From positions 13,395 through 77,394 of IMG/VR virus record IMGVR_UViG_3300029305_011610: a DNA stretch of 64,000 nucleotides; one strand, 5' to 3'. Both the position numbers and the translations under genes were made by a program. Shown here piece by piece: positions 13,363 through 42,067 of the stretch; the stretch's first letter is position 1; each line of letters begins with the position of its first letter. The notes beneath the pieces are model-generated. The model was not told where the DNA came from. It saw only the letters and a program-made list of their open reading frames with translations, and made no database searches. Source of the stretch: a virus (taxonomy: Duplodnaviria > Heunggongvirae > Uroviricota > Caudoviricetes).

Positions 13363-13515
13363 TTTTTAATATGGTAAGCAGAGACACCGATCAGTGCACC
13401 GCCGACAATTAGATTCAGGACACTAACAATACCTGCCCCTTGGCTTGAAGCCACAACAGTTCCCACTCCGGCCGCTACGATACCAAAGCCAAACATGGTT
13501 ACATCAAAATGCTTT

Positions 13516-19062: not shown

Positions 19063-19806
19063 TTATTTTATTGACGAGTCAGAACCGTCACTCGTCATAA
19101 GCGTGCTATCAAAAGGACATTTCATTTCAAAATCGTCTTTAATTTCCCTCTTGTATTTATAATATGTATTTCTAGAAACCCCAGAAAGAGTTATCACATC
19201 GCAATCATTCAATGTTCCGCCAAAGTCTTTTGAATGCCTACGAATAACTTTCTTTGCTTCGATGCTTTTCTTTGTTGTAACCCGTCTTCCTTTGACTGCA
19301 CCAATTTGCTTGCCGTTTAAACGGGCTACCTCCATTCCCTCGCGAGTTCTCTGACGTAAGTCTTGAACCTCTTTTTCTGCTTGTTGAAATGCGAGCTGAA
19401 TTTGCTTCTTAGCTAATGCCATGAGGTATTTGTTGATGCCATCCAGAATGAAGTCAACGCTACCGCCTGTCATTTGGATGTTGCTGTCAAGTGCCTTTTT
19501 GTATGTTTCGGTGTTGATATGAGGCTCTTTTAGGAATACGAGGTTCACACCTCTGTTGTACAGCTCTTGATAAGCTGTAAAACCTTCCTCCGCATTTCTA
19601 GACATACGGCTGACACTATCAAAAATAATGGTATCACCACTTTTAACAAGCCTATAGAGCTTGTTCCACTCCTTTCGTTTGTCAAAAGCAGCGCCGCTAT
19701 ACTTCTCGCTTATTATGACTGCATCACTACAGAATATTTTTATATTATTTATTTGGCGATTAATACTCTGCTTTTCTGTGCTAACTCTAACGTATCCATA
19801 ATTCAA
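19063..19806 (-). CDS. Small serine recombinase (resolvase/invertase family) with C-terminal HTH
   Basis: N-terminal YVRVSTEKQ (catalytic Ser), SRMSRN, and a C-terminal DNA-binding region. Confidence 0.85.
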   Translation of the reverse strand: MNYGYVRVSTEKQSINRQINNIKIFCSDAVIISEKYSGAAFDKRKEWNKLYRLVKSGDTIIFDSVSRMSRNAEEGFTAYQELYNRGVNLVFLKEPHINTETYKKALDSNIQMTGGSVDFILDGINKYLMALAKKQIQLAFQQAEKEVQDLRQRTREGMEVARLNGKQIGAVKGRRVTTKKSIEAKKVIRRHSKDFGGTLNDCDVITLSGVSRNTYYKYKREIKDDFEMKCPFDSTLMTSDGSDSSIK

Positions 19807-22441: not shown

Positions 22442-23533
22442 CTATTTTAAATTAAAACAGCCATCAAACATCTCATCTGTATAAAGCACTTTACTCATAT
22501 TCAATCCTGAAATATCAACTCGGCTGAGCTTGCTGCATCCCTTAAACATCCTTGCAGTGTTGTCGGGAGTTGCCGTCCAACAGCCAGTATCAATATCTGT
22601 CAAACTACTACACCCATGAAATGTCTCAGAAAACGCATAGTAGCTAGCATTTGATACGTCCCACGTTTCAAGTCCAATGATTCGCTCTAAGCTTGAGCAA
22701 TACTCAAACATCTGGCTAAACTGCCTACACGTTCCTGTGTCTAGTCCCGACACATCCACAGAAGTAAGAGACCTACAGTCATTCAGAAGTGCATCAAACG
22801 ACTCGACAGAAGTCGTTTGCCATTTTGAAAAGTCTATGTATTTCAACCCATAGCAGTCTGCGAACATATGAGAAAAGGTTTCCACATTTGAAACATCCCA
22901 GTTCTCGACTGGAAAATGTTCTACTTGAGCACATCCGTAAAACATATGACTCATGTTCTCTGCCGAAGAGGTGTTCCATTCACCAACATCGATACGCTTT
23001 AATGCTATATCTCCGGAATTATTATTTCCTTGAAACATAGCTGCGAATGTTTTCACGCTTGAAACGTCCCATTGTTCAATGCCGCTAATCTCATCTAGTT
23101 TCGTGAATGCAAACATCATCTTCATATCTTCAACGTAAGATGTGTCCAACAATTCAAGCCCAGAAATGAACGTCAGACTGGACCACAACGGATCTCCATA
23201 ACTGTTGCATGCTGCAAACATATACGAACATCTTGGATTTGCAAAAAAGAAGTCACCAATAATGGCGACTTCCTTACCTATTCTATATCCTTTTATCGTT
23301 CCACTATTCGCTTCATCAGCATTCCACGTTTCATCAAAGCTTTCTGGATGGGTATGACCAAATGTAATAGATGTGATTTCAGACATATCCATTGAGCCTT
23401 GGTAGAAGCCGAAGGACTCGCATAGCATATACTCCTTAGGATCAACGACATTTTCATATTGAACGGTTTCTTGCTCCGGGCGTTGACCACCAGAAAGTAG
23501 CGATACCAAAAACAAAACCATTGCAATGCACAT
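22442..23533 (-). CDS. Secreted DUF285/BspA-type repeat protein (Mycoplasma-type 26-residue leucine-rich repeats)
   Basis: N-terminal signal-like MCIAMVLFLVSLLSGG. Repeats of W(D/N)VSNV(E/T)xFSHMFxxCxSLxxID. A 330-bp promoter-like non-coding region lies upstream. Confidence 0.7.
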   Translation of the reverse strand: MCIAMVLFLVSLLSGGQRPEQETVQYENVVDPKEYMLCESFGFYQGSMDMSEITSITFGHTHPESFDETWNADEANSGTIKGYRIGKEVAIIGDFFFANPRCSYMFAACNSYGDPLWSSLTFISGLELLDTSYVEDMKMMFAFTKLDEISGIEQWDVSSVKTFAAMFQGNNNSGDIALKRIDVGEWNTSSAENMSHMFYGCAQVEHFPVENWDVSNVETFSHMFADCYGLKYIDFSKWQTTSVESFDALLNDCRSLTSVDVSGLDTGTCRQFSQMFEYCSSLERIIGLETWDVSNASYYAFSETFHGCSSLTDIDTGCWTATPDNTARMFKGCSKLSRVDISGLNMSKVLYTDEMFDGCFNLK

Positions 23534-23868: not shown

Positions 23869-24225
23869 CTAATATTTTTTTACTCGTACCTGTAATCCGT
23901 GATCTAACGCTGTCTTAATCATATGTTCTGTCCCATGGCTTTCTCCGTCCCAAAATGCAACAAGGGCATCTGCTTCTCTTGCCATCTGGGTGTTTCTAAT
24001 ATACCCGGCACCTCTACCATACACTTCCCATTCAGCGGGAAATTGCTGTATGCTATATCCTCTCTCAAGAGCATATCTTTCACCTAAAAGGTCAGCTCCT
24101 CTAGCGCCACCAGAAATCACAAAAATCTCATCGCTTTTCTTGTTAGAAAGAATGTGATCCAAATAATCCTTCATCATCTGGTAGTCATTAAAGTCTCTAC
24201 CGCCTGCGATTATTACTTTAAACAC
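23869..24225 (-). CDS. DUF2493 (SLOG/YpsA-like) Rossmann-fold protein
   Basis: GGARGADLLGERYALERG...FPAEWEVYGRGAGYIRNTQMAREADALVAFWDGES matches the DUF2493 signature. Confidence 0.7.
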   Translation of the reverse strand: MFKVIIAGGRDFNDYQMMKDYLDHILSNKKSDEIFVISGGARGADLLGERYALERGYSIQQFPAEWEVYGRGAGYIRNTQMAREADALVAFWDGESHGTEHMIKTALDHGLQVRVKKY

Positions 24226-25584: not shown

Positions 25585-26279
25585 TCATTCTCCCTATAAA
25601 CAATAAGGCGTGAATATATACGATCCACCTTACGAGAAAGCTCTTTCCCTAAATATGAAACCTTAGTTTTATTCCACACTCTCATATTGGGGTCGATTCC
25701 ATATCCGTAGATTACGGAGTAATGACTCCCTTTATACGAGAACTTCATGATATAAATTGAATCCCCGATATGCTTCACATGGATCTTCACACCGCCAATC
25801 TCAAACCTTGACGACTTATGCGCATTATCATCAAAACGAGTTCCCCATACCTTTAGAACTCTCTGTTTATCCACGCAGAAAACTACATGCGTTTTATAAA
25901 AGGCTATCGTAAATTGTTCGTCACCAACATATGCAAAATAATTGCCATCGATATGGTTATTGTTTAGCGTATTCCCTTTACAATCAGCGATAAACTGCTT
26001 ATAAGGTCCATACTCATCGTTTACTTCTTTAACAATCGCTCTAGGACAATCCGGGCAATTGGAAATTACATATGAATCAATGTCATGAAAACAATCACAA
26101 TCTTCGTATCTAATTCTTTCACGATCGGTCCAACCAACAGCTCTCTTCATGTCCATGAAGAACATGTTCTCATTTACGATAACGCCGTCTTTAATAACAA
26201 CAACGCCATAATCAATCATCGCCATGGGCTTCCTCCTAAAGTTAATCACTCTACTCATTAGATGCAAACCGTAAATCAA
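25581..26279 (-). CDS. Hypothetical protein
   Basis: 232-aa ORF. Confidence 0.5.
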   Translation of the reverse strand: MIYGLHLMSRVINFRRKPMAMIDYGVVVIKDGVIVNENMFFMDMKRAVGWTDRERIRYEDCDCFHDIDSYVISNCPDCPRAIVKEVNDEYGPYKQFIADCKGNTLNNNHIDGNYFAYVGDEQFTIAFYKTHVVFCVDKQRVLKVWGTRFDDNAHKSSRFEIGGVKIHVKHIGDSIYIMKFSYKGSHYSVIYGYGIDPNMRVWNKTKVSYLGKELSRKVDRIYSRLIVYRENE

Positions 26280-26653
26280 TTGAACAAAGACACAATATCG
26301 ATTTCGCTTTCTTCAAACTCTTCAGCAAACACGTACAAATCCCTACACGGGACTATATGGTATCTGGTTCTGTTACGTTTATTTTTAACTTCGCTATCGC
26401 TTGTATACCATAGTTCATTGCTTGTTTTATCGCAAGTTAATGCATGCATGCTGCCTTCACAATCATACGCATCCTCAAAAACATACTCGCGAGTCCAATA
26501 TTTAGCTAATCGCGGGTCTACCGACTCTCTGTAAGCCTCCACAAAGTCTGCCATTTCATCCGCGCTATCAAATGTGATAATGCAATATGATTCGCCATTC
26601 TTTATTCTTTTAAGATGATCTTCCCCTAGAAGATTCAGATCGATTTCGTGCAT
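26276..26653 (-). CDS. Small paralog family A member
   Basis: Similar to the 29688..30098 product (DxxLxGxxxxxxIxNGxSxxIxxFxxxxEMxxFVxxYRExxDxxLxxYW; SNELW). Confidence 0.5.
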   Translation of the reverse strand: MHEIDLNLLGEDHLKRIKNGESYCIITFDSADEMADFVEAYRESVDPRLAKYWTREYVFEDAYDCEGSMHALTCDKTSNELWYTSDSEVKNKRNRTRYHIVPCRDLYVFAEEFEESEIDIVSLFN

Positions 26654-26733
26654 ATACTCACCGCCTTATTATCCTATAAATAAAGCCAACATCAGTAGCA
26701 CTCCGATGATAGCCGCGCATTTTTGTTCTTTCG

Positions 26734-27435
26734 TCACACTCCAACCTCATTCTGATTCTTGTTGAGCTTACTCCAATTATACCAACCGTACAGACAGTTG
26801 ATTGTCCATGCTACATACATTGCAACCATAGACCAGTTGCCGGCAACAAACCAGAGCTTAATACACAGTAAGTCGATGAAAAGCCACCAGATCCACTGTT
26901 CTCTATAACGCCAAACCATCAGCAGTTGTGCGATAATTGCCATTACATTTGTGGCAGCATCTGTATACGCTTGAGCACTATCGAAATAATCAAGCGCTTT
27001 ACCCATAATCGCAGTTGCGATAACGGTCAGAACAAGAGAAACGGCCCACTGTGTAGCAGTAAATTTCTTAGCCGCTACGTCGGATGAGCCGTCTTCATTC
27101 TGTACCATATTCTTTTTCCATACGAAAATGCCCCAAATCATTGTTACGAAATAAAACAGATTCTCAAGAACTTCTCCGTAAAATCGGTTTTCCCATGCAA
27201 GATATAAATATGTAAATGTCTGGATAAACCCGATAAAATACGCAGACAGTTTCCCCTTTGCAAATAGAACTACGGAGATAACGCCTGCAATACCTGCAAC
27301 AATATTTACCCATGTATCAGGTGTGATACAGAATACAATAATCTGCAGCGTAACCATCGCCGTCAGGAAGATTCTTTCATACCAACTGTAGCCAGTCCAA
27401 AACTCATTTACGAGAGTATTTTTAATCTTGTTCAT
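26734..27435 (-). CDS. pnuC: Nicotinamide riboside transporter PnuC-like
   Basis: Seven predicted TM helices with Trp-rich PnuC-like segments (WENRFYGEVLENLFY..., WYNWSK). Confidence 0.7.
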   Translation of the reverse strand: MNKIKNTLVNEFWTGYSWYERIFLTAMVTLQIIVFCITPDTWVNIVAGIAGVISVVLFAKGKLSAYFIGFIQTFTYLYLAWENRFYGEVLENLFYFVTMIWGIFVWKKNMVQNEDGSSDVAAKKFTATQWAVSLVLTVIATAIMGKALDYFDSAQAYTDAATNVMAIIAQLLMVWRYREQWIWWLFIDLLCIKLWFVAGNWSMVAMYVAWTINCLYGWYNWSKLNKNQNEVGV

Positions 27436-28556
27436 CGTCCAATCACCTCATTGACATAGTTAACAACGGCCAAGAAATTGCCGTAATATCCTTCTCTTAA
27501 AACTGTAACCTTATCCCAGTTACCTGATGCCTTGATATTGTTGCACAGAATCTCAAACAACTCCTGTCGTTCTTCCATTCCAGAATGATTCATAAACCTC
27601 ATATGATCGTCTACAAAAACTCCGTTTGGTGCAACCAAAAATATCTTATCCCATCTACATTTTCGAGTGAGTTCATCAGCCATAACAGCTACCTTCTCAA
27701 ACTCTTCTTGAGTTAGTTCGCAATCTTTATCCTTGGCATAGTATTCTGCGTACATACGAGTAACCATCGAGTCAGAATCAGCAAAGAACAAGCCGTGGTT
27801 GGCAGGAGAATTGATAAGCTTTTTGTTGAGATTATATTGACCTTCTAAGAACGCCATGTAGTCAGCACCGTCCAGTTCCCAGTCACTCACACAGCTCTCT
27901 TTCATATAATCTCTCGCGTACTCCCAGCTGTAAGGAGCATTAAAGTATTTACCAAGGTCTCTTGTTAACACGGTTTTGCCCTCTGAAGCAGTGCCTGCAA
28001 TCAGAATATTATGGCTGAAAACTCTTCTGAAAGGAAAAGTAATCTTATCCCAATTCTTAATCGGATTCTGGCGAATCGCTGTAGCACAGATCGGGTTAGT
28101 CGCAACACGATCTACCAGTATAGCTTCTTCACCACGAATCGTTAATCCTTCGCTATACTCTGCATCACCAACATACCACCGGCGAGACGCTTGTCCACAA
28201 ACACCTTTATCCCAGATGCGCTTTGCTTCATTAAGCCATGCTTCCCAGCCATTTGGGTATGTTTCAATTCCAAGCTCCGTGTCGTTAATTGCATACACGG
28301 CAACCAGATCATCGTCAGCAAAGAACTCTCGCACATATCTGTATCGTTTGGAGTGCGGCATTAGCGGCTCTCCTTTATCTCCATCGTAACCGCACACAAT
28401 TACAAGTGCGCCACCGTCATTTTCCTTCTTAGCCCTCATAATCAAGTCAAGATGCCCTTGATGCAGAGGGGCAAAAGAACCAAAAACAACCCCTACGGAA
28501 TTTCCGCAAAGGGGTTTCTGATAAGCATGTAACATTTTTACTTCTCCTTTTCCCAA
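27432..28556 (-). CDS. nadR: NadR-like bifunctional NMN adenylyltransferase / ribosylnicotinamide kinase
   Basis: N-terminal GSFAPLHQGH (HxGH nucleotidyltransferase motif) and central P-loop IAGTASEGKT. Gene is adjacent to pnuC. Confidence 0.75.
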   Translation of the reverse strand: MGKGEVKMLHAYQKPLCGNSVGVVFGSFAPLHQGHLDLIMRAKKENDGGALVIVCGYDGDKGEPLMPHSKRYRYVREFFADDDLVAVYAINDTELGIETYPNGWEAWLNEAKRIWDKGVCGQASRRWYVGDAEYSEGLTIRGEEAILVDRVATNPICATAIRQNPIKNWDKITFPFRRVFSHNILIAGTASEGKTVLTRDLGKYFNAPYSWEYARDYMKESCVSDWELDGADYMAFLEGQYNLNKKLINSPANHGLFFADSDSMVTRMYAEYYAKDKDCELTQEEFEKVAVMADELTRKCRWDKIFLVAPNGVFVDDHMRFMNHSGMEERQELFEILCNNIKASGNWDKVTVLREGYYGNFLAVVNYVNEVIGR

Positions 28557-29002
28557 GAATACACAAGGAACTCAGACCATCGTTCATCCTCTTCTTTAGA
28601 TGGACGCTGGAACTTGCTCCACAGTCTATCCATTTCTTTATCTGGAATTTGTCTACGCCGCATTCGATTATTCTCCTTACATACCTCAATTGGCGTATCA
28701 ATAAAAATCAGAGTATACTTCTCAAAATGTGGAAACCAGTCAAGAAGCTGAACTCTATCCACCAGCGTCGGAGAATTGGAATCAAGAATAACATTCTTCC
28801 CGGACTGTTCTGCAGTATGTATCGCTCTAAACAGAGCCATCCAAACTTCAAATTTATTCTCATGGATGCATTCATCCCCGTTTAACAGTGCATAGAAATC
28901 ATCTGGACATAAGTACAGGTAATTGTTTTCTACCGCATAGTTCTTTGCAAACTTCGTTTTACCGCTTCCACACATACCGCACATTACTACCAGATTGCCC
29001 AT
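28538..29002 (-). CDS. P-loop kinase (AAA_33/PNK-like)
   Basis: Walker A GMCGSGKT at the N-terminus and a DxxR-like lid. 154 aa. Confidence 0.6.
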   Translation of the reverse strand: MGNLVVMCGMCGSGKTKFAKNYAVENNYLYLCPDDFYALLNGDECIHENKFEVWMALFRAIHTAEQSGKNVILDSNSPTLVDRVQLLDWFPHFEKYTLIFIDTPIEVCKENNRMRRRQIPDKEMDRLWSKFQRPSKEEDERWSEFLVYSWEKEK

Positions 29003-29005
29003 TTT

Positions 29006-29338
29006 TCACACCACCTTAAATAAATCACCGATAGGTATATCGCTTTCAAAAATTGGTTCTGCTCTTATTAAATCAGAAAAATTTATCAACTCATATTCAT
29101 GCTCAATATAATAATCCTCTTTCATGTACTGCATTGACCCCCTATGAAACGATACAGCGAATCTGATAGGTTGCACCATATTATACCGTAACTCTAAGTC
29201 CCCATCATTCCAGAGAATAACCAACTCTGGCCGGCACTTTTTTGCCTCATGAAGTAGAGCGATCGCATCTTCAAGATTATTGAAAACAATAGCTTTCCGT
29301 TTACGTATAAGCTTATTAAAATCAATTTCAAGTTCCAT
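29006..29338 (-). CDS. Small paralog family A member
   Basis: Close paralog of 29341..29697 (AIVF..ED..RRFAVSF..GFMQYM.EDYY...I.F..L...EPI.ESD...DLFKV). Confidence 0.5.
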   Translation of the reverse strand: MELEIDFNKLIRKRKAIVFNNLEDAIALLHEAKKCRPELVILWNDGDLELRYNMVQPIRFAVSFHRGSMQYMKEDYYIEHEYELINFSDLIRAEPIFESDIPIGDLFKVV

Positions 29339-29340
29339 TT

Positions 29341-29697
29341 TTACATCACCTTAAATAAATCGCTAAAAAGCATATCACTTTCGAGGATTGGCTCGATGTT
29401 TGCTAAGCTAGCAAACTCAATTATTCGGAAACCCTCTTTATAATAATAATCTTCTGTCATGTACTGCATGAATCCGGCTTCGAATGAGACTGCAAACCTC
29501 CGAGGTTGCGTGCTTTTATAGCGACTTTCTATCGCTCTGTCACTTTCCCAAAGATCGACTATACGATTATTATAAGCTCTAGCCGCATTAACAAACGTCT
29601 TTGCATCTTCAACAACATCAAAAACAATCGCTACTTTCTTGTGGAGAAAGTCCTCAAAATTAATTTCAAGACTCATTTTACGCCTCCTCAAACACAA
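29341..29697 (-). CDS. Small paralog family A member
   Basis: See 29006..29338. Confidence 0.5.
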   Translation of the reverse strand: MCLRRRKMSLEINFEDFLHKKVAIVFDVVEDAKTFVNAARAYNNRIVDLWESDRAIESRYKSTQPRRFAVSFEAGFMQYMTEDYYYKEGFRIIEFASLANIEPILESDMLFSDLFKVM

Positions 29698-30098
29698 AAC
29701 AGAGATTTGATAGGCAGAGAACTTTCATTGAAGTCGTCACTCTCTGAAACAATCAAGTTTTTAAAATAAACTACATGATACTTCTTCTCTGTTTTTTTAA
29801 GCACTCTTGCCGAAAATTGGTCATGACTTTGGATCCATAACTCATTGGATCCTTTATCAATTCTTAGCGCCCTTTTACCAGCTCTAAACGCATGTTTAGC
29901 AAAGCCTATCTTCCAATAATCAGATAGATTTTTATCGAAAACTTCTCTATACGAAACAACAAAGTTAACCATCTCTTCTTCGGTCTCAAAAACTACAATA
30001 GTATTTGATTTACCATTCTCGATGTCTTGAATGACATGATCACCCATAAGCGAAAAATCAACATTTTTATACACATAGTTAGTCATTTGAAACACCAC
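29688..30098 (-). CDS. Small paralog family A member
   Basis: Paralog of 26276..26653. Confidence 0.5.
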   Translation of the reverse strand: MVFQMTNYVYKNVDFSLMGDHVIQDIENGKSNTIVVFETEEEMVNFVVSYREVFDKNLSDYWKIGFAKHAFRAGKRALRIDKGSNELWIQSHDQFSARVLKKTEKKYHVVYFKNLIVSESDDFNESSLPIKSLFCV

Positions 30099-30103
30099 CA
30101 GTC

Positions 30104-30442
30104 TTATATGCCAAAAAGAAGTTTTGTATCAAAATCATCATCAATTTCGATATCATCTACAAGCAAATCAGAGAATTCAATGACTTTAAAACCTCTGTCT
30201 TTATACCATCTGTCATAACACCACTCTATACCATCATCATATTCACTTATTGACAAGGCTAAACGATGGCATCCGTTATAGTATTTAATCATATACTCCG
30301 CTCGCTCAAGACCCCAGCCGTGTGTGTTTACATGTGGCATTTGGGTCTCAACTGCATTAAAAAACGACGCGGCCTCGTTAGCGTTTCTGCACACAACTGC
30401 CGTATTGTGCAAGGATGGCATCAAAGATAAATCGATTGTCAT
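30104..30442 (-). CDS. Small paralog family A member
   Basis: HNTAVV...EAASFFNAV...WYKDRGFKVIEFSDL...DDDFD...LLFG pattern shared with 47818/48195/30439. Confidence 0.5.
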   Translation of the reverse strand: MTIDLSLMPSLHNTAVVCRNANEAASFFNAVETQMPHVNTHGWGLERAEYMIKYYNGCHRLALSISEYDDGIEWCYDRWYKDRGFKVIEFSDLLVDDIEIDDDFDTKLLFGI

Positions 30443-30816
30443 TGAGCACCTCCAAACAACAAGCTCTCTATGTCTTCATCAGAAAAACAAATATGTAAAT
30501 TATCATCTGCTATTAGGTCAGAACACTCAATTATTGTAAAACCATTGTCTCGATACCAGGCTTCGTTACACCAGTTTATTGTATCAGAACCATAAGACCC
30601 AGTGTCACACGCTAAGGCCACTGCAGGTCGAGCGTTATTTACATTGGTACTTTTGAGTATCTTATCGCTTTTCCAAAACTCTTTGCTTTTATTAACGAAG
30701 CGCTCTGGGAATTGAGTGATTGCCTCATCAATAAACTCTAAGTAACCATCCATGTCTTCTCTATCAAAAACAATTGCTGTTTTGTAGTGATCTTTAATCA
30801 GAGACAAATCCATCAA
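30439..30816 (-). CDS. Small paralog family A member
   Basis: TAIVFDRED...WYRDNGFTIIECSDL...SDEDIESLLFG. Confidence 0.5.
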   Translation of the reverse strand: MMDLSLIKDHYKTAIVFDREDMDGYLEFIDEAITQFPERFVNKSKEFWKSDKILKSTNVNNARPAVALACDTGSYGSDTINWCNEAWYRDNGFTIIECSDLIADDNLHICFSDEDIESLLFGGAQ

Positions 30817-30840
30817 ATCAGAACACCTCCAAAAACTCTT

Positions 30841-31173
30841 TTATTTTTCAAACAAGAATTTTATATCCATATCACTTTCAGAAAAAATCGGAACATAGAT
30901 TAATTCTCTCAATTCTATTACTTTATATGTTCGAAAAGCTTCTCGAACTCCATGTACCATTTCATCGAAGACATCTCTGTCCAAACAAAACCACCTAAGT
31001 CCGCTATCATAGAATCGAGAATCTGCATCCCAATTCCTTGTCATTTTGGGAAAAGTAAGTTTTACAGCCTTAATAAAAGGCTCATAGTATTCTCTTTCTT
31101 CAACCTCAATTATCATTGTTCGAGGGTCGAATTCTGAAAACTTAATATCTGTAGCACAAAAATCTAATTTCAT
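30841..31173 (-). CDS. Small paralog family A member (start probably at the internal Met MKLDF)
   Basis: Ends ...SESDMDIKFLFEK. The upstream part of the track ORF overlaps the next gene. Confidence 0.45.
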   Translation of the reverse strand: MKLDFCATDIKFSEFDPRTMIIEVEEREYYEPFIKAVKLTFPKMTRNWDADSRFYDSGLRWFCLDRDVFDEMVHGVREAFRTYKVIELRELIYVPIFSESDMDIKFLFEK

Positions 31174-31177
31174 GAAT

Positions 31178-31546
31178 TCACCCCCAAATATATTCAAAAC
31201 CGAAATCACTTTCGGGAATTTCCAACTCTGACGACAAGTCTTCAAAACTTATCATATTTACATATGGATTCTCTAAATATTGCTCATATATACCACGGAC
31301 AAATCTACCGCCGATTCCTCTAAAAGACAGTCCAACTTTTTTGCCCTTGTGTAAACGAGCCTGTTGCCTACCCCATCCTGGGCCGACACGACTAGGGTAC
31401 TGTTCTTTTGCCGCAGCTAAAACTGCATCAATTTGCTCTTGACTATCAACGATAACAACATTTCTGTTGTCTAGTAATAGAGAAAGGTCGAGAGTATACT
31501 CACAACCAAACTTGTCTATCATATAATCCCGACCTTTCATATTCAT
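31178..31546 (-). CDS. Small paralog family A member
   Basis: ...ISFEDLSSELEIPESDFGFEYIWG C-terminal motif. Confidence 0.5.
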   Translation of the reverse strand: MNMKGRDYMIDKFGCEYTLDLSLLLDNRNVVIVDSQEQIDAVLAAAKEQYPSRVGPGWGRQQARLHKGKKVGLSFRGIGGRFVRGIYEQYLENPYVNMISFEDLSSELEIPESDFGFEYIWG

Positions 31547-32468: not shown

Positions 32469-33731
32469 TTAATAAAAACTTGCTTCAGTTTTATCGAAGC
32501 GCAAAGTCACAAACACCGGGAATTGCAGACTCTCTGCACCGGTGTTTTTGTCTTTAGAGATTTCTTTGTACTTAACTTCACAAATCTGCCCTACAAGTTC
32601 ATCTCTATGTGCCCAAAAGTAAGCCCTTTGCTCATCCGTAAACCCAGAACCTACTTTTACCTCGTTGCCTTTATAATCAACTACAAAAGCCCCAAGCGTG
32701 CCTGTGAGTCTCCCGCTACCCTCTTCACAACGAACCACAGGCAAATCCATTGTGTAGAATCGCTTGATTTTTAAGATGCCGTTATGTCTCTTACACTTGT
32801 AAGGAACATCAAGATTAAGCATCAGACCTTCTTTATCTTCTTCAACCATCTTATTGAGAAGAATATCTATCATATTTTGATTTCTCCCGCTATAGAGAAC
32901 AGGTAACACCTGAACACACTTGGGTTCGAAGAAATTACTTGCAATTAACTTGTCAAGAAACTCTCTTCTCCTCTTATATGTCTGCGTACAGCGGTCATTT
33001 TCGAACTCTGTAGTCGGCACAACATCAAAAACCGTGAATAAAACTGGTGTTTTATTAACTGCGTCAGAATTGACAATTCCAGTGACTTTTCTGAAGGCTT
33101 CATTGTCGCCCAGACCACCTTTATCAGCAAGAATCAGCTCACCATCGAACACATAATCGTGTCCAAATGCCCTGAACTCTTTTATGATATGGTCAAGCCC
33201 GGAAAATACCTCTCCGCTCCGTGCATATAGGTTTCCTTTGTAGTATGTAGCACGAACACCATTCAGCTTTTCCGTTAGTGCGAACCATGTGCCGTCTTTG
33301 ATTTCATATTTATCAATCGGGTATGCCTGCTGGACGTTCCATTCGGGAATTAATCCAGGGATTACCTTGTTAACAGTCTTATTTGTAACTCCAAGTCGCA
33401 GAGTCTTGGACAGTAACTGAGTGAATAGTTCACGATGATCATCAGTACAGGAAAACAAAAAGCCACGAACTCGTTCCAGATCGGAATTGCTCGTGGCTTT
33501 CTTGTTTAGCAGATATTCACACACTTCAAAGATACTAACGAACCCGCTCTCTTGGAAGCACGGTTCTGATAGTGATTTCTCTGATACCTTATAAGAACAG
33601 AGTGGATTTAGTGCGTACCATAACAGGGCTTTAAAAATGTCGTTGTCTTTGTTGTCTTGGATTATTTTCTTTTTAGCTAGAGCTCCAGATGTATTTTGTA
33701 GCTCTTTAATTAAGCGTATTGCAGCGTCCAA
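32469..33731 (-). CDS. ATP-dependent DNA ligase
   Basis: Motif I KLNGVR (KxDGxR-type, Asp replaced by Asn), motif III FDGELI, motif IV EGLMLN, motif V LKIK. OB-fold C-terminus. Confidence 0.7.
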   Translation of the reverse strand: MDAAIRLIKELQNTSGALAKKKIIQDNKDNDIFKALLWYALNPLCSYKVSEKSLSEPCFQESGFVSIFEVCEYLLNKKATSNSDLERVRGFLFSCTDDHRELFTQLLSKTLRLGVTNKTVNKVIPGLIPEWNVQQAYPIDKYEIKDGTWFALTEKLNGVRATYYKGNLYARSGEVFSGLDHIIKEFRAFGHDYVFDGELILADKGGLGDNEAFRKVTGIVNSDAVNKTPVLFTVFDVVPTTEFENDRCTQTYKRRREFLDKLIASNFFEPKCVQVLPVLYSGRNQNMIDILLNKMVEEDKEGLMLNLDVPYKCKRHNGILKIKRFYTMDLPVVRCEEGSGRLTGTLGAFVVDYKGNEVKVGSGFTDEQRAYFWAHRDELVGQICEVKYKEISKDKNTGAESLQFPVFVTLRFDKTEASFY

Positions 33732-34571: not shown

Positions 34572-34648
34572 TGGTGCGCCTCCTGGGGCTCGAACCCAGA
34601 ACCGTCCGGTTATGAGCCGGGTGCTCTAACCAATTGAGCTAAAGGCGC
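34572..34648 (-). tRNA. tRNA-Met/Ile2 (anticodon CAT), CCA encoded
   Basis: Manual fold: acceptor GCGCCTT/GAGGCGC, D-arm GCTC..GAGC, anticodon loop CTCATAA, T-arm CTGGG-TTCGAGC-CCCAG. Lacks initiator-type features, so an elongator or Ile2. Confidence 0.75.
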
Positions 34649-34661
34649 ATGTTAATCTGAG

Positions 34662-34883
34662 TTAATGCAACAACTTAACACGATTCGTCTCTTCATACTC
34701 TGTTAACACATCATTTGCTAACGCAACGGCATAACACGAATAGTATTTCTCGCAAGAACTTTCGCAATCATCAAGAGTCCATCCTTCGGGGATATCGCAT
34801 CCTGTTAGGTTTTTCATTTTAATATTTAGACCATTATCAATTACATCGTCAAACATCGACCTATCTATATTATATTGTTTCAT
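34662..34883 (-). CDS. Hypothetical protein
   Basis: 73-aa ORF. Several <60-aa ORFs with good RBSs follow at 34915–35823 on the minus strand. Confidence 0.4.
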   Translation of the reverse strand: MKQYNIDRSMFDDVIDNGLNIKMKNLTGCDIPEGWTLDDCESSCEKYYSCYAVALANDVLTEYEETNRVKLLH

Positions 34884-35920
34884 AGATATTCCCTCATTTA
34901 CGAAATCACTTTTATGTGGTTAATCTTCTTCATACAAATCAATGAAACAACGAACAGCACCGCAATAAGGACAAACATTTGTATCATTGACTTCATCGTA
35001 ATCAAATTCATCTTCGTGAAATTCTTCTTTGCAAATATCACATCTTACTCTATTAGTAGGTACTAACATAATTCATCACCTTAAAATCGTCATTTTATCC
35101 ACATTTCATTTGAATAAAATATCTAAAGCCTTTACTCCAATTAGGTTTCTCGCCCCACAAATGAACCTCATCTTTTGGCAGATTCTTCTTTGCCCAATTA
35201 TTAGCCTGTGATGCTGTCTTGAATCCAGACTTTACGGGAGTAAAGTTCTTCTCTTTATCAATTACACAAAACATAACCTTACCTCCAAAATAGTCATTTT
35301 AATCTCTATTTACAAAGCCATTTACTCTGTCTATCAGTCTATCAGCACCCTCTACTTGTGCAATTCCAACAAGCTCCTCTAAATCTTGTTTCAAATAGCA
35401 CATACAGTTCCAATCCATATAAGAACCTTGTACACAGTTCAAAATCTCTGTAATTTTTTCTTTAGATGTCATATTATCCACCTCTTAGAATTGTCATTTT
35501 ATAAACAGGCTATTCCATAAATCTTTAACCATGTTTCTTTTGGTTTCCTTTTTATATACAAAACACATCATAAGAAAAACAATAAACATGATTGTAATAG
35601 AAACAAGTACACCTTTCATACTTTTACCTCATAAAATTATCCTTTCATGCTCTATCGACTGTGTAATAGGATGTAAATTTGTATTTTTTACTTGATTCAT
35701 TCATATCTTTTGCGAAAGCTTCTGCCTCTTCTAATGTACCGAAAAAGTATGTTGCTCTATAATGCATATAGCTGCCCTTTTGAAAAAAATCATCGTACTG
35801 ATGAACCCTATATTTTTTGTCCATATCGCACCTTCATTTCAGTTTTTACAACACACCAAATCCATTAGCTACAAACCTAGCTACCATCGGCCTAGCCTTG
35901 CGGCTGCCGAAACCTCTCCT

Positions 35921-35990
35921 ACGTATTACGTACTAACTGCTTACGCAATTACTACGTATTATTTACTAACTGTTATACGCAATTTCTTCC
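35921..35990. repeat. Two direct repeats of about 34 bp
   Basis: ACGTATTACGTACTAACTGCTTACGCAATTACT / ACGTATTATTTACTAACTGTTATACGCAATTTCT, in the non-coding region before the tRNA array. Confidence 0.6.
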
Positions 35991-36188
35991 ACGCCTCACA
36001 AGACATGTAACCTCTGGATTTGATATGTCACGGCACTTCTCACCCAATCCTCTGGTGCGTTCAGTAGGCAGCCGTTTCCACAATCTGTCTTGGGTGACCA
36101 ATCTAATCAATCGCATCTTTGTCGCTACCGCACAGCGCGCAAGACAGGCCCGTTTAGTCTCATGGAGCTCTGTGGAACCATACATCTG

Positions 36189-36262
36189 GAGCGGATGACG
36201 GGAATCGAACCCGCGTACCCAGCTTGGAAGGCTGGTGTTCTACCATTGAACTACATCCGCAT
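36189..36262 (-). tRNA. tRNA-Gly (anticodon TCC), CCA encoded
   Basis: GCGGATGTAGTTCAATGGTAGAAC...anticodon loop CTTCCAA...GGGTTCGATTCCCGT...CTCCA. Confidence 0.8.
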
Positions 36263-36428
36263 TTGATGGTGGTTTTTAACCCGTGGGAAGTCAAAATGGG
36301 TGGTCAACCACCGTAACCATGGCATTGCGCTTTGTGCACACTAATGACGAAAGGTGTCAAACTATAGTAAGCGCAAAAGAACCTCAACGCTCTTCCACCT
36401 CGCAGATTGCCATTCTGCCTCGTGGGAC

Positions 36429-36504
36429 TGGTGCGCCAAGGGGGATTCGAACCCCCGACTAATGCCTTAAAAGGGCACTACTCTGCCAGCTGAGTTATTG
36501 GCGC
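36429..36504 (-). tRNA. tRNA-Lys (anticodon TTT), CCA encoded
   Basis: Anticodon arm GTGCC-CTTTTAA-GGCAT. T-arm GGGGG-TTCGAAT-CCCCC. Acceptor GCGCCAA/TTGGCGC. Confidence 0.8.
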
Positions 36505-36720
36505 ATGAAAGGAGGGCGATTTTTAACTCCGTGAGAGGCCAACCGCCGTAGCCTTTTACTTTGGATTGTTCTATACATTCCTACACACAGCACAGGCTTG
36601 AAGGTGAAAGACAACACAAAAAGAAAAGCCAAAGCTATGCAAGCCGAAATTGTTAAACGTGTAATGTCTGAACACCAAAAACCAATTCTATTTGTCTGAA
36701 AAAGAATTGGGAAGAAAATC

Positions 36721-36812
36721 TGGTACGGGCACAGAGACTCGAACTCTGATCAACCAATTATCTGTTGCTACGGAGTATAAACCCGTTGCTCTACCGATTG
36801 AGCTATACCCGC
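36721..36812 (-). tRNA. Atypical tRNA: anticodon loop TTTATAC (anticodon TAT, Ile?) with a 21-nt variable arm, CCA encoded
   Basis: Good acceptor (two G·U pairs), D-arm GCTC-AATCGGTA-GAGC, T-arm CAGAG-TTCGAGT-CTCTG. The type-II-length variable region (hairpin CAAC...GTTG) is unusual for a UAU anticodon. Confidence 0.5.
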
Positions 36813-36936
36813 ATGTTTGTGCTTCTTGGTTTTCTCAACTATGGAGAGGCTTGCCCATTGCCGGTTTATAGTCCCTTCCGCATTGGGACTTGAAAGGAAG
36901 ATTAAAAATGAATCAAATAAGTACCTATTTGATATA

Positions 36937-37011
36937 TGGCAGGGATGGCTGGATTCGAACCAGCGAATGACGGAGTCAAAGTCCGTTACCTTACCGCTTG
37001 GCTACACCCCT
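36937..37011 (-). tRNA. tRNA-Gln (anticodon TTG), CCA encoded
   Basis: AGGGGTGTAGCCAAGCGGTAAGG...ACGGA-CTTTGAC-TCCGT...GCTGG-TTCGAAT-CCAGC, typical bacterial Gln architecture. Confidence 0.8.
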
Positions 37012-37169
37012 ATAAAGGCGGCTACTCGCGCCGCCATGTGTGTTTTCTTTCGGATACTCCTACATCAGCCCGTGGTTATCACACAACCCCAAATCTAGCT
37101 CCGCAGGTCGTCGGAAGCTGATCCCGTCACCTGTTTCAACGCTACGATAACAGTCTTGCCGCTACCGCA

Positions 37170-37243
37170 TGGCATGGAAGCTCGGAATCGAACCGAAATT
37201 AATAGTTTTGGAGACTATCGTTTTACCATTAAACTACTCCCAC
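37170..37243 (-). tRNA. tRNA-Trp (anticodon CCA), CCA encoded
   Basis: Anticodon arm ATAGT-CTCCAAA-ACTAT, D-arm GTTT..AAAC, T-arm TTCGG-TTCGATT-CCGAG. The acceptor stem has two G·U pairs. Confidence 0.7.
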
Positions 37244-37342
37244 AAATGAAACAAATGGGCGGCAGAACCGACTATAGTCTACTCTTTAAAGCTAAGAGGA
37301 AAGCTTAACCTCACGCCAGAATCCCTAGCGCTACCCATTAGA

Positions 37343-37425
37343 AACTTTTTTATGGTGCCGGTAGCGAGACTCGAACTCGCACGAGTAAACACGAGCTCCT
37401 AAGACTCGCGTGTCTACCAATTCCA
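37343..37425 (-). tRNA. tRNA-Leu (anticodon TAG), type II, CCA encoded
   Basis: GCCGGTATGGTGGAATTGGTAGACAC...CGAGT-CTTAGGA-GCTCG, 11-nt variable arm, GCGAG-TTCGAGT-CTCGC. Confidence 0.8.
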
Positions 37426-37439
37426 CCATACCGGCGTGA

Positions 37440-37515
37440 TGGTCTGAGTAGAGGGATTCGAACCCCCGACATCCTGTTCCCAAAACAGGCGCGCTACCAA
37501 CTGCGCTATACCCAG
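37440..37515 (-). tRNA. tRNA-Pro (anticodon TGG), CCA encoded
   Basis: CCTGT-TTTGGGA-ACAGG anticodon arm. GGGGG-TTCGAAT-CCCTC T-arm. Confidence 0.8.
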
Positions 37516-37520
37516 ATATA

Positions 37521-37598
37521 TGGAGCTGGTTGTGGGGATCGAACCCACGACCTCCGGATTACAAATCCGGCGCTCTAACCAACTGCAGCTAAACCAGC
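37521..37598 (-). tRNA. tRNA-Thr (anticodon TGT), CCA encoded
   Basis: GCTGGTTTAGCTGCAGTTGGTTAGAGC...CCGGA-TTTGTAA-TCCGG...GTGGG-TTCGATC-CCCAC. Confidence 0.8.
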
Positions 37599-37828
37599 GT
37601 GCTTCTGCGAGCTTATGCACCCTTTTTGGCATCAGAACTCGTACCATTAGCTACGAATAACATAGGTATGGATTTACACCATACATAGTGTCTTATTGGA
37701 ATTGTGTGCGCACACGCCTCCAGATTCTCACACCTGAATCACTTGCGTCTACCTATTCCGCCACTACATTTCTTCGCAGCCGCAGGGAAGGCTTTACCTT
37801 CTCAAGCATAATTTAATCATCACTTACT

Positions 37829-37916
37829 TGGCGGAGCAGAGAGGGTTCGAACCTCCGCACGGATTACCGCCTATCTGATTAGCAATCAGACCTCTTCACC
37901 ACTTGAGTACTGCTCC
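37829..37916 (-). tRNA. tRNA-Ser (anticodon GCT), type II, CCA encoded
   Basis: GGAGCAGTACTCAAGTGGTGAAGAGG...TCTGA-TTGCTAA-TCAGA, long variable arm, GGAGG-TTCGAAC-CCTCT. Confidence 0.8.
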
Positions 37917-38067
37917 ATGCTGTGTCACGAATAATGTATACTATTCGGGACAAATTGGTATGAGTGGGCCATGGCCCGTCCATGTACCCACTCTGCTTTG
38001 TCGTCTCTTCCGACTTGTCAAGATCGGTTTTCATAATCTCACACTCCGCAAAGTGTAGCCCCTATTG

Positions 38068-38159
38068 TGGCGCGGATAGAGGGATTTGAACCCCCGCACG
38101 GTAGTTAGCCGCCTAGCGCTTTTCAAGAGCGCACTCTTCAACCGCTTGAGTATATCCGC
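38068..38159 (-). tRNA. tRNA-Ser (anticodon TGA), type II, CCA encoded
   Basis: GCGGATATACTCAAGCGGTTGAAGAG...GCGCT-CTTGAAA-AGCGC, long variable arm, T-loop TTCAAAT. Confidence 0.75.
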
Positions 38160-39195: not shown

Positions 39196-39199
39196 TTGA

Positions 39200-39232
39200 T
39201 CGAACCTTTACTCCCACTTACAGCGAGGAGCA
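39200..39232. repeat. Conserved motif TCGAACCTT(T/C)ACT(C/T)C(C/T)ACTTACAGCGAG(G/A)AGCA, copy R1
   Basis: Near-identical to 39433–39464. Its 3' 22 nt also occur at 33887–33908. Confidence 0.6.
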
Positions 39233-39299
39233 CACTAAAAAGTGTAATACATTACAAAATGATACTTTTATACACGTTATTCTATATACTTTATATGTG

Positions 39300-39430
39300 A
39301 GCACCAGGTTGGAAGCAAGCGCTCCGGGGGTTCGCAGGTGACTGGCGTGCGGTCTAGGAGGGGTTGCTGTCCTCCAATCTGGGCGGAGTCTCTTCGGCCG
39401 GGGTTTTCCCTGCGATAGGCTGGACTGTTG
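39300..39430. ncRNA. GC-rich structured non-coding element 2, ending at the same motif
   Basis: GCACCAGGTTGGAAGCAAGCGCTCCGGGGGTTCGCAGGTGACTGGCGTGCGG...CGGCCGGGG, about 62% GC. The track ORF 39277..39465 is implausible as coding. Confidence 0.35.
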
Positions 39431-39432
39431 GT

Positions 39433-39464
39433 CGAACCTTCACTTCTACTTACAGCGAGAAGCA
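39433..39464. repeat. Conserved motif copy R2
   Basis: TCGAACCTTCACTTCTACTTACAGCGAGAAGCA, immediately 3' of the RT stop. Confidence 0.6.
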
Positions 39465-39495
39465 TCGTATAAACGATAATGCTATATAGAATATT

Positions 39496-40647
39496 TTAAT
39501 ATTTTAGATCTGACTTGATTGCCGAAACAATATCAACTCCTACCTTTCTACTGATATGGTCTACCATCTTATCTATGGTTTCTTTTTCAATCATTCGGTA
39601 GTAGTTTCTATGCCCTTCAAGCACTCTTATATCTGTCTTTTCCCACGGCGTCCCATTTAATCTATCCAACGCATAGTTGGTTAGCATTGCTTGGAACTCC
39701 TTTTTCTTCTTATACCCAATCGTAATATCATTGTTGGAGTTAAGCATTACACCCAGATGTCTGTTTCGCCCAGCAGACGATCCGTAAGTAGTCTTTTCCT
39801 TCTTGATAATAAATGGGGCATTGAAGTAGCTAAGTGTATTTGTGATCAGCTGCTCAACTAACTTCACATCGAAGTCTCGCCTTGAAGAAATGATGAAGTC
39901 GTCTGCATATCTTGTATACACAAACGACTGGTTGTTGTAGTTATGAAGCATTTTAGTTAACGCATGGTCTACTGGGATCATCATTATATTTGTGATTAGC
40001 GGAGAGATCGGTGTTCCTTGAGGCAATCCGCCGTTCAAGAATGCAAGTTCAAGGGCAGTTTCGAGCTGCTGCCTACCCACAGTATACTTAACCACCTCTG
40101 AGAATGGAAAAATCATTGAAAACTGCTTCATCACAAATTCAAGCGTTGTGCTACCAAAGAAGTCAGACAAATCGAACTTGCCGAACCACTTACTCTCGTT
40201 CGCTTGATGTTTTTTGATCGCATCTATTGTGCTTCTCTTTTTCACATAAGCGAACGCAGAGGTGTGATACAGTGCATGAAAATCTTCTTCAAAGATAACT
40301 TTAAGAGTTCTCAATGCTTCCATCAGTTCGGGATTTGGTGCGTCGATTCTTCTATAACCTCTCCCGCTTTTCTTGGGCTGATAAAAAGTACGATACTGAT
40401 CCTGTCTCGGCCTGCTTCGCAACTCTTCTGTTTGCTGATTAAACACAACCAGCTTAGAGATAAGCAAGGGGATATTAACACTTGCCAGCATTTTATCGCT
40501 CACTTGCTCCACACAGTATGTTCTGGTAGATGTAAATCTGCCCGCAGAAGGTACAACCGGTTCGCGAATCGTGGCTGTTGCGAACAGCAACTCTTCCAGT
40601 GTCATCTCTCGAAGTACAGGAGCGTTTTTTACTGTTATGTATACCAT
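39496..40647 (-). CDS. Reverse transcriptase (retron/group-II-like RT domain, 383 aa)
   Basis: RT motifs GLPQGTPISPLITN (motif 4), VYTRYADDFIIS (YADD, motif 5), IKKEKTTYG...RHLGVMLN (motifs 6–7, retron VTG-like), and a distal HRNYYRMIE (thumb/X-like). Confidence 0.85.
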   Translation of the reverse strand: MVYITVKNAPVLREMTLEELLFATATIREPVVPSAGRFTSTRTYCVEQVSDKMLASVNIPLLISKLVVFNQQTEELRSRPRQDQYRTFYQPKKSGRGYRRIDAPNPELMEALRTLKVIFEEDFHALYHTSAFAYVKKRSTIDAIKKHQANESKWFGKFDLSDFFGSTTLEFVMKQFSMIFPFSEVVKYTVGRQQLETALELAFLNGGLPQGTPISPLITNIMMIPVDHALTKMLHNYNNQSFVYTRYADDFIISSRRDFDVKLVEQLITNTLSYFNAPFIIKKEKTTYGSSAGRNRHLGVMLNSNNDITIGYKKKKEFQAMLTNYALDRLNGTPWEKTDIRVLEGHRNYYRMIEKETIDKMVDHISRKVGVDIVSAIKSDLKY

Positions 40648-41389: not shown

Positions 41390-42067
41390 TTAAAATGCCA
41401 TCAGATCAAAAGCAAATGCATCCGCCAGAATCAGCTTTTTTAAGGGATTCCCATTCCAGAAGTTCATGAAATTGGATACGCCATAAGCGCACACAATTCG
41501 AACTGTAGGACAGACAGACAGGGTTACATTACACGCTGATACAGGTGTCTCTTCCTTGGCTTCGTCGTGGGAAAAATCCATAGAGTTCAGGAAGTCCTGT
41601 TTCATCTTGTAATCAGACCAGTCTGCAGCATAGTGCTGTGCATCCGTCAACCGGGTTCTGAAATCGAACATCGCCTTAACGAACGGGCTATCGAAATGCT
41701 TCTTCGCGATTTCCTTACGCAGTTCGATATTGTCTACGCACAGAAATACATAGCCAGACATCAGCTTACCCTTCCAACCTTCAGGCTTCAGCTCGATATC
41801 GTCTTTGATATCGGGATTGATTTCCATCAGGATGTCGAGAAGAGCCTCAACCTTCGGCTTCCCCACATCCTTTTGTCTGAACATCTGGTTAGCAAGATTA
41901 TGAGGCTCTACGATATCAAAATCCCAGAGAGTCATCTTTGTTACGCCGCAGCGTGCCAGGTTTTCTGCAACTGTGGAACCTACAGAACCACAGCCAACAA
42001 TATGAATTCTCGCAGTATCCTTTTCGGGCTGGAAAAATTCATAGCTTTTAGAAAGATCCATTGCCAT
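41390..42067 (-). CDS. E1-like ThiF/MoeB-family adenylyltransferase
   Basis: Rossmann nucleotide-binding motif IHIVGCGSVGSTVAENLARCGV...LWDFDIVEPHNLANQ. Confidence 0.75.
   Translation of the reverse strand: MAMDLSKSYEFFQPEKDTARIHIVGCGSVGSTVAENLARCGVTKMTLWDFDIVEPHNLANQMFRQKDVGKPKVEALLDILMEINPDIKDDIELKPEGWKGKLMSGYVFLCVDNIELRKEIAKKHFDSPFVKAMFDFRTRLTDAQHYAADWSDYKMKQDFLNSMDFSHDEAKEETPVSACNVTLSVCPTVRIVCAYGVSNFMNFWNGNPLKKLILADAFAFDLMAF

Follow-up and report, generated by a model that had tools for sequence, protein, structure and literature searches.

This report concerns a putative phage-borne NAD+ salvage module at 26734-29002 of a 64,000-nucleotide (nt) stretch of the virus record IMGVR_UViG_3300029305_011610; we refer to the whole of that stretch as the window. 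Three minus-strand open reading frames (ORFs) of the window fill the interval exactly and are tightly coupled (Table 1). They are transcribed in the order small kinase, NadR-like enzyme, PnuC. The initial annotation had placed three genes over just this span, and the ORFs match it; its listing followed the plus strand, so the adjacency of the genes stands but the order of transcription is the reverse of the one listed. At the first junction, as read from the sequence, the kinase stop codon (TAA, 28538-28540) is followed by 2 nt and then by the nadR ATG at 28535; at the second, the nadR stop and the pnuC start overlap as ATGA. The ATG at 28535 is likely the true nadR start, because it is preceded by AAGGAG and because the corresponding 367-residue protein was called on identical metagenome contigs. 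The position of AAGGAG inside the 3' end of the kinase gene, taken with the TAA-2 nt-ATG junction, indicates translational coupling of kinase and nadR. Downstream of pnuC, a gap of 80 nt holds a weak hairpin.

Table 1. Features of the NAD+ salvage module (window coordinates)
Feature	Position	Strand	Remarks
Small P-loop kinase gene	28538..29002	-	154 residues; polynucleotide-kinase-like fold; first of three-gene unit
NadR-like bifunctional enzyme, no HTH domain	27432..28535	-	367 residues from ATG at 28535
Alternative start of NadR-like ORF (TTG)	27432-28556	-	374 residues
NMNAT (adenylyltransferase) domain of NadR-like protein	28041..28499	-	HxGH, YPNGW loop, ICATAIR motif
RNK (ribosylnicotinamide kinase) domain of NadR-like protein	27456..28028	-	Walker A, Walker B, lid
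PnuC nicotinamide riboside transporter gene	26734..27435	-	233 residues
Shine-Dalgarno-like AAGGAG for nadR	28544..28549	-	within final codons of kinase gene; 8 nt before ATG 28535
Terminator-like hairpin, weak	26690..26708	-	consensus scan only; possible operon end

The central protein of the unit combines a cytidylyltransferase-like domain (PF01467) with an AAA_28 domain (PF13521), and it matches phrog_3462 at 1.4e-64. Among solved structures it is matched by the NadR proteins of Lactococcus lactis (PDB: 6GYE; 3.3e-64), Escherichia coli (8X7F; 1.3e-30) and Haemophilus influenzae (1LW7; 2.7e-22), and by 9X6F (1.6e-22); 9X6F and 9X6H are structures of Bas30_86, the enzyme of the phage system named NARP3. 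The protein begins 12-19 residues ahead of the first strand of its nicotinamide mononucleotide adenylyltransferase (NMNAT) domain. The 411-position model of enterobacterial NadR, NF005988, aligns with it only at positions 62-407, and because this alignment begins at model position 62 we regard the N-terminal helix-turn-helix (HTH) region, which enterobacterial NadR possesses, as absent from the window protein.

We compared the motifs of both domains in a multiple alignment of the window protein with the NadR proteins of L. lactis (LlNadR) and E. coli (EcNadR) and with Bas30_86. In the NMNAT domain the HxGH signature is intact as PLHQGH (28452-28463), the YPNGW loop is conserved, including the equivalent of Bas30_86 G89, and the xxATxIR motif is present as ICATAIR. 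The ribosylnicotinamide kinase (RNK) domain carries its Walker A as GTASEGKT (27972-27995), with Walker B (FFADSD) and the DDxxR lid (VDDHMR) also conserved; these three elements are those named for LlNadR (PMC7221760). The equivalent of Bas30_86 D275 is retained as well, within RWDKI. The adenylyltransferase motif and the P-loop kinase domain that the initial annotation had recognised in this protein are therefore both found, and the alignment to characterised NadR that it had proposed as a check on the key catalytic residues reveals intact catalytic motifs in both domains.

The assignment of the third gene as pnuC, for nicotinamide riboside (NR) uptake, is borne out by family and structure matches. 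Its product matches PF04973 (5.4e-44), scores 154.3 bits against the NCBIfam equivalog TIGR01528 and so passes the curated threshold of 42.45, and aligns over its full length (residues 11-227) with the structure of Neisseria mucosa PnuC (PDB: 4QTN; 1.5e-39). The match to phrog_1880 stands at 1.3e-47. For all three proteins of the unit, the family assignments are much stronger than chance would give. For the assignment we rely on the full-length 4QTN alignment, in which the conserved segments RYREQW..W and YGxxNW are found; a Kyte-Doolittle scan for transmembrane segments is uninformative for this transporter of low hydrophobicity. We also attempted to place the published NR-binding residues of PnuC (Q124, Q196, N214 and Y242) on 4QTN. 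Only an implausible numbering offset fitted, and that mapping was not used.

The window holds no structural genes within its 64 kb, and its identity as phage DNA, which is well supported, rests on context. There are PHROG matches for DnaB, an ATP-dependent DNA ligase and an exonuclease, and the window carries DnaG, DnaB, ERF, PD-(D/E)XK nucleases, the ATP-dependent ligase (32469-33731) and an SbcD-like exonuclease. Further elements of this context are an integrase, a resolvase, a reverse transcriptase, the tRNA array and drum RNA described below, and a YonO-type RNA polymerase shared with c-st, Enterocloster and SPbeta phages. Since a megablast search of the locus against cultured phages gave no match, the locus was identified by protein-level searches. 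Close relatives of the NadR-like protein (58-77% identity) are encoded on 120-160 kb IMG/VR viral contigs, and also on contigs of gut metagenome-assembled genomes from ruminants, rabbit and human. The latter contigs were binned inconsistently, to Clostridia, Lachnospiraceae, Ruminococcus, Christensenellaceae and Paludibacteraceae, which is what mis-binned phage contigs look like. In all, 3028 NadR-like homologs fall below 1e-10, and the best 120 of them are all at least 75% identical. In every related locus with downstream sequence, nadR is directly followed by pnuC (34 distinct loci after de-duplication).

The best hint to the host is offered by a 912-residue YonO-type RNA polymerase (RdRP-family, PF05183) at 58062-60800, whose identity to the proteins of Clostridium phage c-st and of Enterocloster phages is 38-41%, and which is more distantly related to those of Bacillus phages, including a record named SPbeta. 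The nearest cellular homologs of the NadR-like protein are streptococcal, at about 41% identity. On the best reading, the window comes from a gut phage that probably infects Clostridia or another Firmicute.

These observations support the route that the initial annotation had claimed to be complete: PnuC and the bifunctional NadR-like enzyme would together suffice to carry NR through nicotinamide mononucleotide (NMN) to NAD+, a prediction supported by homology and by the motif checks. The two enzymatic activities are predicted from homology to the characterised NadR proteins of L. lactis and H. influenzae and to Bas30_86. We envisage that PnuC would facilitate the uptake of external NR, and that the RNK domain would use ATP to phosphorylate it to NMN, a step that would also trap the substrate inside the cell; the NMNAT domain would then adenylylate NMN to NAD+. 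By this means the NAD+ pool could be rebuilt during infection independently of the host's regulated pathway, and the phage might replicate despite the hydrolysis of NAD+ by Sir2-, TIR- or DSR-type defences.

The closest experimental precedent is the Bas30_86/87 operon of Escherichia phage TrudiRoth, named NARP3 (Yan et al., Sci Adv, 12 Aug 2026; PMC13464706). Bas30_87 binds NR and Bas30_86 converts NR to NAD+; restoration of NAD+/NADH and the 10^3-10^4-fold rescue of T7 and lambda from Sir2-HerA require the two genes together, and the pair also counteracts DSR1 (PMC13464706). The window locus has the architecture by which NARP3 is defined, namely a predicted PnuC-type transporter and an HTH-less NMNAT+RNK enzyme encoded by adjacent, co-oriented genes in a phage context. 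We therefore consider it probable that the phage carries here a NARP3-type operon for NR salvage, which rebuilds NAD+ against depleting defences. The anti-defence part of this proposal would follow by analogy from the experiments on Bas30_86/87.

The likeness to NARP3 has its bounds. The two systems share nadR then pnuC as adjacent, co-oriented genes, an HTH-less NMNAT+RNK enzyme and the predicted sequence NR to NMN to NAD+. However, the window enzyme is distant from Bas30_86 and much closer to Gram-positive NadR, as the E-values given above for 9X6F and L. lactis NadR attest; several residues that make contacts in Bas30_86 differ in it; and upstream it has a third, translationally coupled gene for a kinase of polynucleotide kinase (PNK) fold. 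The host ranges differ too: NARP3 has been described as largely restricted to phages of Enterobacteriaceae (PMC13464706), whereas the clade of the window consists of gut phages probably infecting Clostridia. The best matches of the window proteins among solved structures come instead from bacterial NR salvage (L. lactis and H. influenzae; 6GYE, 1LW7, 4QTN), with which the window shares the two proteins, the domain order, HxGH, Walker A and B and the lid, and from which it differs in that its genes are phage-borne and lie in one operon.

Among phages that are cultured or named, the best matches (37-43% identity) are to Lactobacillus phage LP65 and to clusters of the same kind in Herelleviridae, Lak megaphages and jumbo phages. 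LP65, whose deposited record already annotates a PnuC and NadR pair, departs from the window in that pnuC precedes nadR, two ORFs make up nadR, and a gene for a Nudix hydrolase comes next; a small AAA_33 kinase is adjacent in none of the LP65, Herelleviridae, Lak or jumbo-phage records. Other phages reconstitute NAD+ by NARP2, as in the NadV and NatV (NAMPT and NMNAT) of KVP40, or by NARP1 (Adps and Namat). The last step of these pathways is likewise of NMNAT type, but they are entered from nicotinamide plus phosphoribosyl pyrophosphate or from ADP-ribose with no transporter, whereas the window would start from imported NR. None of their genes was found in the window; among its ORFs of at least 100 residues there is no NAMPT, Nudix, macro, Prs-like, NadE or PncA gene.

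The PnuC/NadR concept is thus already known, and the window contributes a new, divergent example of it from another group of phages and hosts. The pair was put forward as an NAD+ reconstitution pathway by Osterman et al. (2024; bioRxiv 10.1101/2024.02.11.579819), and pnuC-nadR clusters have been noted in surveys of jumbo phages (PMC11662467); among cultured-phage records we count NadR-like genes in 435 and PnuC in 788. In view of the LP65 annotation, the 2024 proposal and the demonstration by Yan et al. in 2026, our interpretation is supported but not new. The initial annotation had suggested that a PnuC/NadR route would be a distinct way of escaping NAD+ depletion. The escape itself has been shown for the homologous NARP3 operon; the claim to a distinct new way no longer holds, given the same proposal and demonstration.

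Several details weigh against reading the locus as a functional NARP3-type defence-evasion operon. The Ser of the ISAT motif in bacterial NadR is replaced by Cys in the window enzyme, and this Cys (C150) is invariant across the whole phage clade. We compared the residue set defined for Bas30_86 (NMNAT: K10, S37, E80, P84, G89, F110, D115; RNK: K163, R167, K168, E230, D275). With the general motifs conserved, F110, E80 and D115 appear as Tyr, Asp and Glu, respectively; K10, P84, R167 and K168 are not conserved, being Ser, Glu, His and Asn; and the equivalent of E230 is ambiguous, with no confident alignment. The biochemically active L. lactis NadR also differs from Bas30_86 at K10, R167 and K168. 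The window enzyme falls below the curated NCBIfam equivalog cutoffs for both TIGR01526 (208.4 versus 341.15) and NF005988 (130.9 versus 201), and for this reason we class it, from its full-length alignment, as a clear homolog of NadR rather than as a curated equivalog. As for the transporter, the NR-coordinating residues known from Bas30_87 (N45, Q94 and N180) could not be reliably mapped onto the 4QTN alignment.

A further point of this kind is that the selective benefit of the operon could be general NAD+ supply instead of defence evasion. With the same biochemistry from NR to NAD+, the pair would then be an auxiliary metabolic gene set that supports replication whether or not a defence is present. 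The phage does encode NAD(P)-using enzymes, FolD (14523-15431) being an example; one relative (L029) has an NAD-dependent DNA ligase 5 kb from its module, another (L030) embeds nadR-pnuC in an island of NAD biosynthesis genes (NAMPT, NMNAT, isochorismatase, NAD synthase), and surveys of jumbo phages have read such genes as independent NAD+ synthesis (PMC11662467). On the other hand, the ligase of the window phage is ATP-dependent, not NAD-dependent, and the 10^3-10^4-fold effect of the homologous operon is exerted specifically against NAD+-depleting defences. Metabolic support and a defence role are not mutually exclusive, and we judge metabolic support to be an unlikely account of the benefit.

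A quite different explanation would make the operon cargo of lysogenic conversion, carried by a temperate or plasmid-like prophage that endows an NAD-precursor-dependent host with NR salvage, so that it is the lysogen that benefits. Among the genes of the window are those for a tyrosine integrase/recombinase (55485-56297), for a serine resolvase (19063-19806) and for a MazF-like toxin (8608-9069); judged by its RNA polymerase, the phage has as its nearest cultured relative Clostridium phage c-st, which is maintained as a plasmid prophage; and the nearest cellular NadR homologs come from Streptococcus. Yet the operon is co-oriented with, and packed into, a long run of early or replication-type genes rather than standing apart as a moron under a promoter and terminator of its own, and strictly lytic phages have the same gene pair (for example the Herelleviridae phage LP65, and the phages of Salmonella and Escherichia that account for most of the operons in the NARP3 paper). 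We regard lysogenic cargo as very improbable, and retain an NARP3-type operon as the preferred interpretation of the core pair.

Some related loci hold further NAD genes. On contig JAEIGA010000878.1 of GCA_016852305.1 (L030; 6001-13131), nadR-pnuC is followed by genes for an isochorismatase/PncA-like protein, a Prs-like protein, a stand-alone NMNAT, NAMPT and NAD synthase, an island that stacks several NAD+ routes (NARP3-like, NARP2-like and possibly NARP1-like). In L029, the NAD-dependent ligase is of LigA type and lies at 12643-13158, about 5 kb downstream of nadR-pnuC. In the window itself, a protein of the SLOG family (YAcAr, PF10686) is encoded at 23869-24225, 2.5 kb downstream of the module. 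The SLOG/YAcAr family is predicted to bind nucleotide- or NAD-derived ligands. We considered this gene as a component of the module and rejected it, as no more than 3 of about 50 related loci have it.

The remaining member of the unit is the small kinase. The initial annotation had noted a further small P-loop kinase beside the pair; the gene is present, with the P-loop GMCGSGKT, but it is not needed for the passage from NR to NAD+. Its product matches PF13671 (AAA_33; 4.6e-14), with weak matches to PSTK, Pnkp and KTI12, and its PHROG label is polynucleotide kinase. By fold and profile it is closest to Clostridium thermocellum Pnkp (CthPnkp), Pnkp1, T4 Pnk, fungal RNA kinases and PSTK; in the same comparison gluconate kinase (13.2), zeta toxin (13.0), the zeta-like AvrRxo1 (10.8) and human NRK1 (9.6) come well below. 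The family keeps the elements of a Pnk-clade P-loop fold, including the Walker A Lys/Thr of the P-loop, a general-base Asp (D34) and the lid arginines. In T4 Pnk, CthPnkp and PSTK the D-x-x-R motif ends in Arg, but all 13 of the 13 kinase family members have an invariant Tyr37 (D-D-F-Y) in its place. This Arg (R38 in T4 Pnk, R41 in CthPnkp) holds the phosphate 3' of the terminal nucleoside in PNK structures. Because it is replaced by an invariant Tyr, we do not file the small kinase, on the evidence of its alignment, as a polynucleotide kinase. The family has further invariant aromatic and His/Glu positions of its own, in an NGD(E/D)CxH and aromatic-rich motif set; it has neither a phosphatase nor a ligase partner domain; and it sits with PnuC/NMNAT genes, not with RNA-repair genes. 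A detached copy of the RNK domain was considered and rejected, since BLASTP found no match between the kinase and the RNK domain of the adjoining NadR. Our literature search found no paper that describes a separate kinase in phage PnuC modules.

The kinase recurs beside these modules in changing arrangements. We drew its contexts from all obtainable loci (numbered with the prefix L): the kinase alignment picked out only 2 when viral contigs were scanned, and a metagenome scan added more. The order kin-nadR-pnuC is that of the window; nadR-kin-pnuC is found in L017, L028, L031, L033, L137, L138, L148, L151, L155 and L156, and nadR-pnuC-kin in L059, while in L034 and L038 the kinase lies about 3 kb upstream of nadR-pnuC. 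In a sister clade the enzyme is a stand-alone NMNAT of 165-215 residues without an RNK domain, and there the kinase occurs as NMNAT-pnuC-kin (L022, L135, L139, L141-143, L178-180) or as kin-NMNAT-pnuC (L158-163, L174, L182). Stop and start codons frequently overlap at the kinase junctions. None of the Salmonella or Escherichia phage records that we searched contained a member of the kinase family.

To gauge the association we took a sample from the enzyme side, which is unbiased for the kinase, and de-duplicated it at 97% nucleotide identity. The kinase adjoins 12 of 25 RNK-less modules versus 4 of 34 that contain an RNK domain (odds ratio about 7, Fisher p = 0.003, with shared ancestry ignored); scoring as positive the two loci whose kinase lies 3 kb away gives p = 0.02. 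This enrichment is suggestive of a functional tie to the module. The stronger notion that RNK-less modules always carry the small kinase is refuted, for 13 of the 25 distinct RNK-less NMNAT-PnuC modules are without it. The small kinase is thus an optional accessory of the module and is not required for the route.

What the kinase does can be approached from its linkage to the module through five gene orders, its translational coupling and its enrichment where the RNK domain is absent, which together argue for a functional tie. We tentatively propose, as a possibility that we hold at somewhat less than an even chance, that it is a real third component that phosphorylates NR or a related pyridine nucleoside, either as an auxiliary kinase or as a replacement. 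In its more specific form, offered with the same reserve, the protein may be a non-orthologous nicotinamide/nicotinate riboside kinase that backs up the RNK domain in the window and replaces it in the sister clade; action on another NAD-related metabolite, for example in converting NAD+ to NADP+, is less likely. Against an NR kinase stand the fold, which is closest to polynucleotide kinases and not to NR kinases, and the redundancy with an apparently intact RNK domain in the window. Moreover, the 13 RNK-less modules without the kinase have no P-loop ORF within 3 kb either, and at some loci where the kinase occurs (L023, L149, L152/L153 and probably L136) no NAD gene is in range.

Those same loci, in one of which the kinase lies between ThiF and reverse transcriptase genes (L023), would fit a plain 5'-OH polynucleotide kinase for the repair of RNA or DNA ends, for instance against anticodon nucleases, whose nearness to the NAD genes reflects no more than a shared accessory arm in related phages. 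The closest folds and profiles (CthPnkp, Pnkp1, T4 Pnk, fungal RNA kinases, PSTK) and the PHROG label point the same way, as do the ATP-dependent ligase 3.5 kb upstream and the phage's possession of its own tRNA set. This end-repair role nevertheless seems to us rather doubtful. The D-x-x-R Arg is an invariant Tyr and there is no 3'-phosphatase domain; in most of the informative loci the kinase abuts pnuC or nadR/NMNAT, in five orders and often with overlapping codons; it is over-represented among RNK-less modules; and a separate, longer AAA_33/KTI12 kinase in several relatives could be the true polynucleotide kinase. An accessory kinase of pyridine nucleosides remains our preferred, if tentative, reading. 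The longer AAA_33/KTI12-type kinase (about 290-300 residues) lies 2-6 kb from the NAD module in L028 (3728-4600), L032, L033, L049, L055 and L064, and may be these phages' genuine polynucleotide kinase; the window does not contain it.

What the core finding contributes is a wider range for NARP3, not a new principle: operons of this type are plentiful among the uncultured phages of a large gut and rumen clade, probably on Clostridia, which implies that NAD+-depleting immunity and the availability of NR shape the conflict between phage and host in anaerobic gut communities too. The accessory kinase is a more useful lead than the core pair. Were it indeed an NR kinase on a polynucleotide-kinase scaffold, it would represent a new enzyme family for the production of NMN and would define an RNK-independent variant of the pathway in three genes (stand-alone NMNAT, PnuC and the PNK-fold kinase), which would explain how phage modules with only NMNAT and PnuC can be self-sufficient.

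Several other features of the window deserve mention. The module is flanked on both sides by members of a set of eight diverged paralogs (110-136 residues, 18-36% identical), of which seven form a tandem array upstream (29006-31546) and one lies just downstream (26276-26653). They have no Pfam match and share an invariant Trp and a C-terminal ESD...LF motif; the module of relatives is likewise bordered by strings of small genes. Eleven tRNA genes form an array at 34572-38159, in an ORF-poor, GC-richer stretch, and a twelfth, for tRNA-Leu, is found at 44530-44616. Between the tRNA-Gln and tRNA-Trp genes lies a drum RNA (RF02958, 76.9 bits; 37035-37144). A 108-nt tRNA-like Rfam match (37.8 bits; 47052-47159), not called by ARAGORN, could be an intron-containing or degenerate tRNA.

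The reverse transcriptase gene (RVT_1; 39496-40647) and a ThiF-family gene (41390-42067) are conserved together in L017, L023 and L064, and the former also occurs in L022. Immediately downstream of the reverse transcriptase gene is a pair of 65-nt direct repeats (39196-39260 and 39428-39492; 74% identical). A diversity-generating retroelement at this site is unsupported, as the mismatches of this sole repeat pair are not adenine-specific. The MazF/PemK-like toxin gene (PF02452, 5.8e-24; 8608-9069) is located inside the replication arm. A metabolic cluster at 11188-15431 comprises genes for a class-V aminotransferase/cysteine desulfurase-like protein (11188-12375), GP88 (12679-13362), a PAPS-reductase-like ATP-PPase (13516-14526) and FolD (14523-15431); this cluster and the ThiF-family gene hint at a pathway of sulfur transfer or nucleic-acid modification. 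Finally, a DUF285/BspA-like leucine-rich-repeat protein (PF03382, 2.1e-41) is encoded at 22442-23533, in the accessory region.

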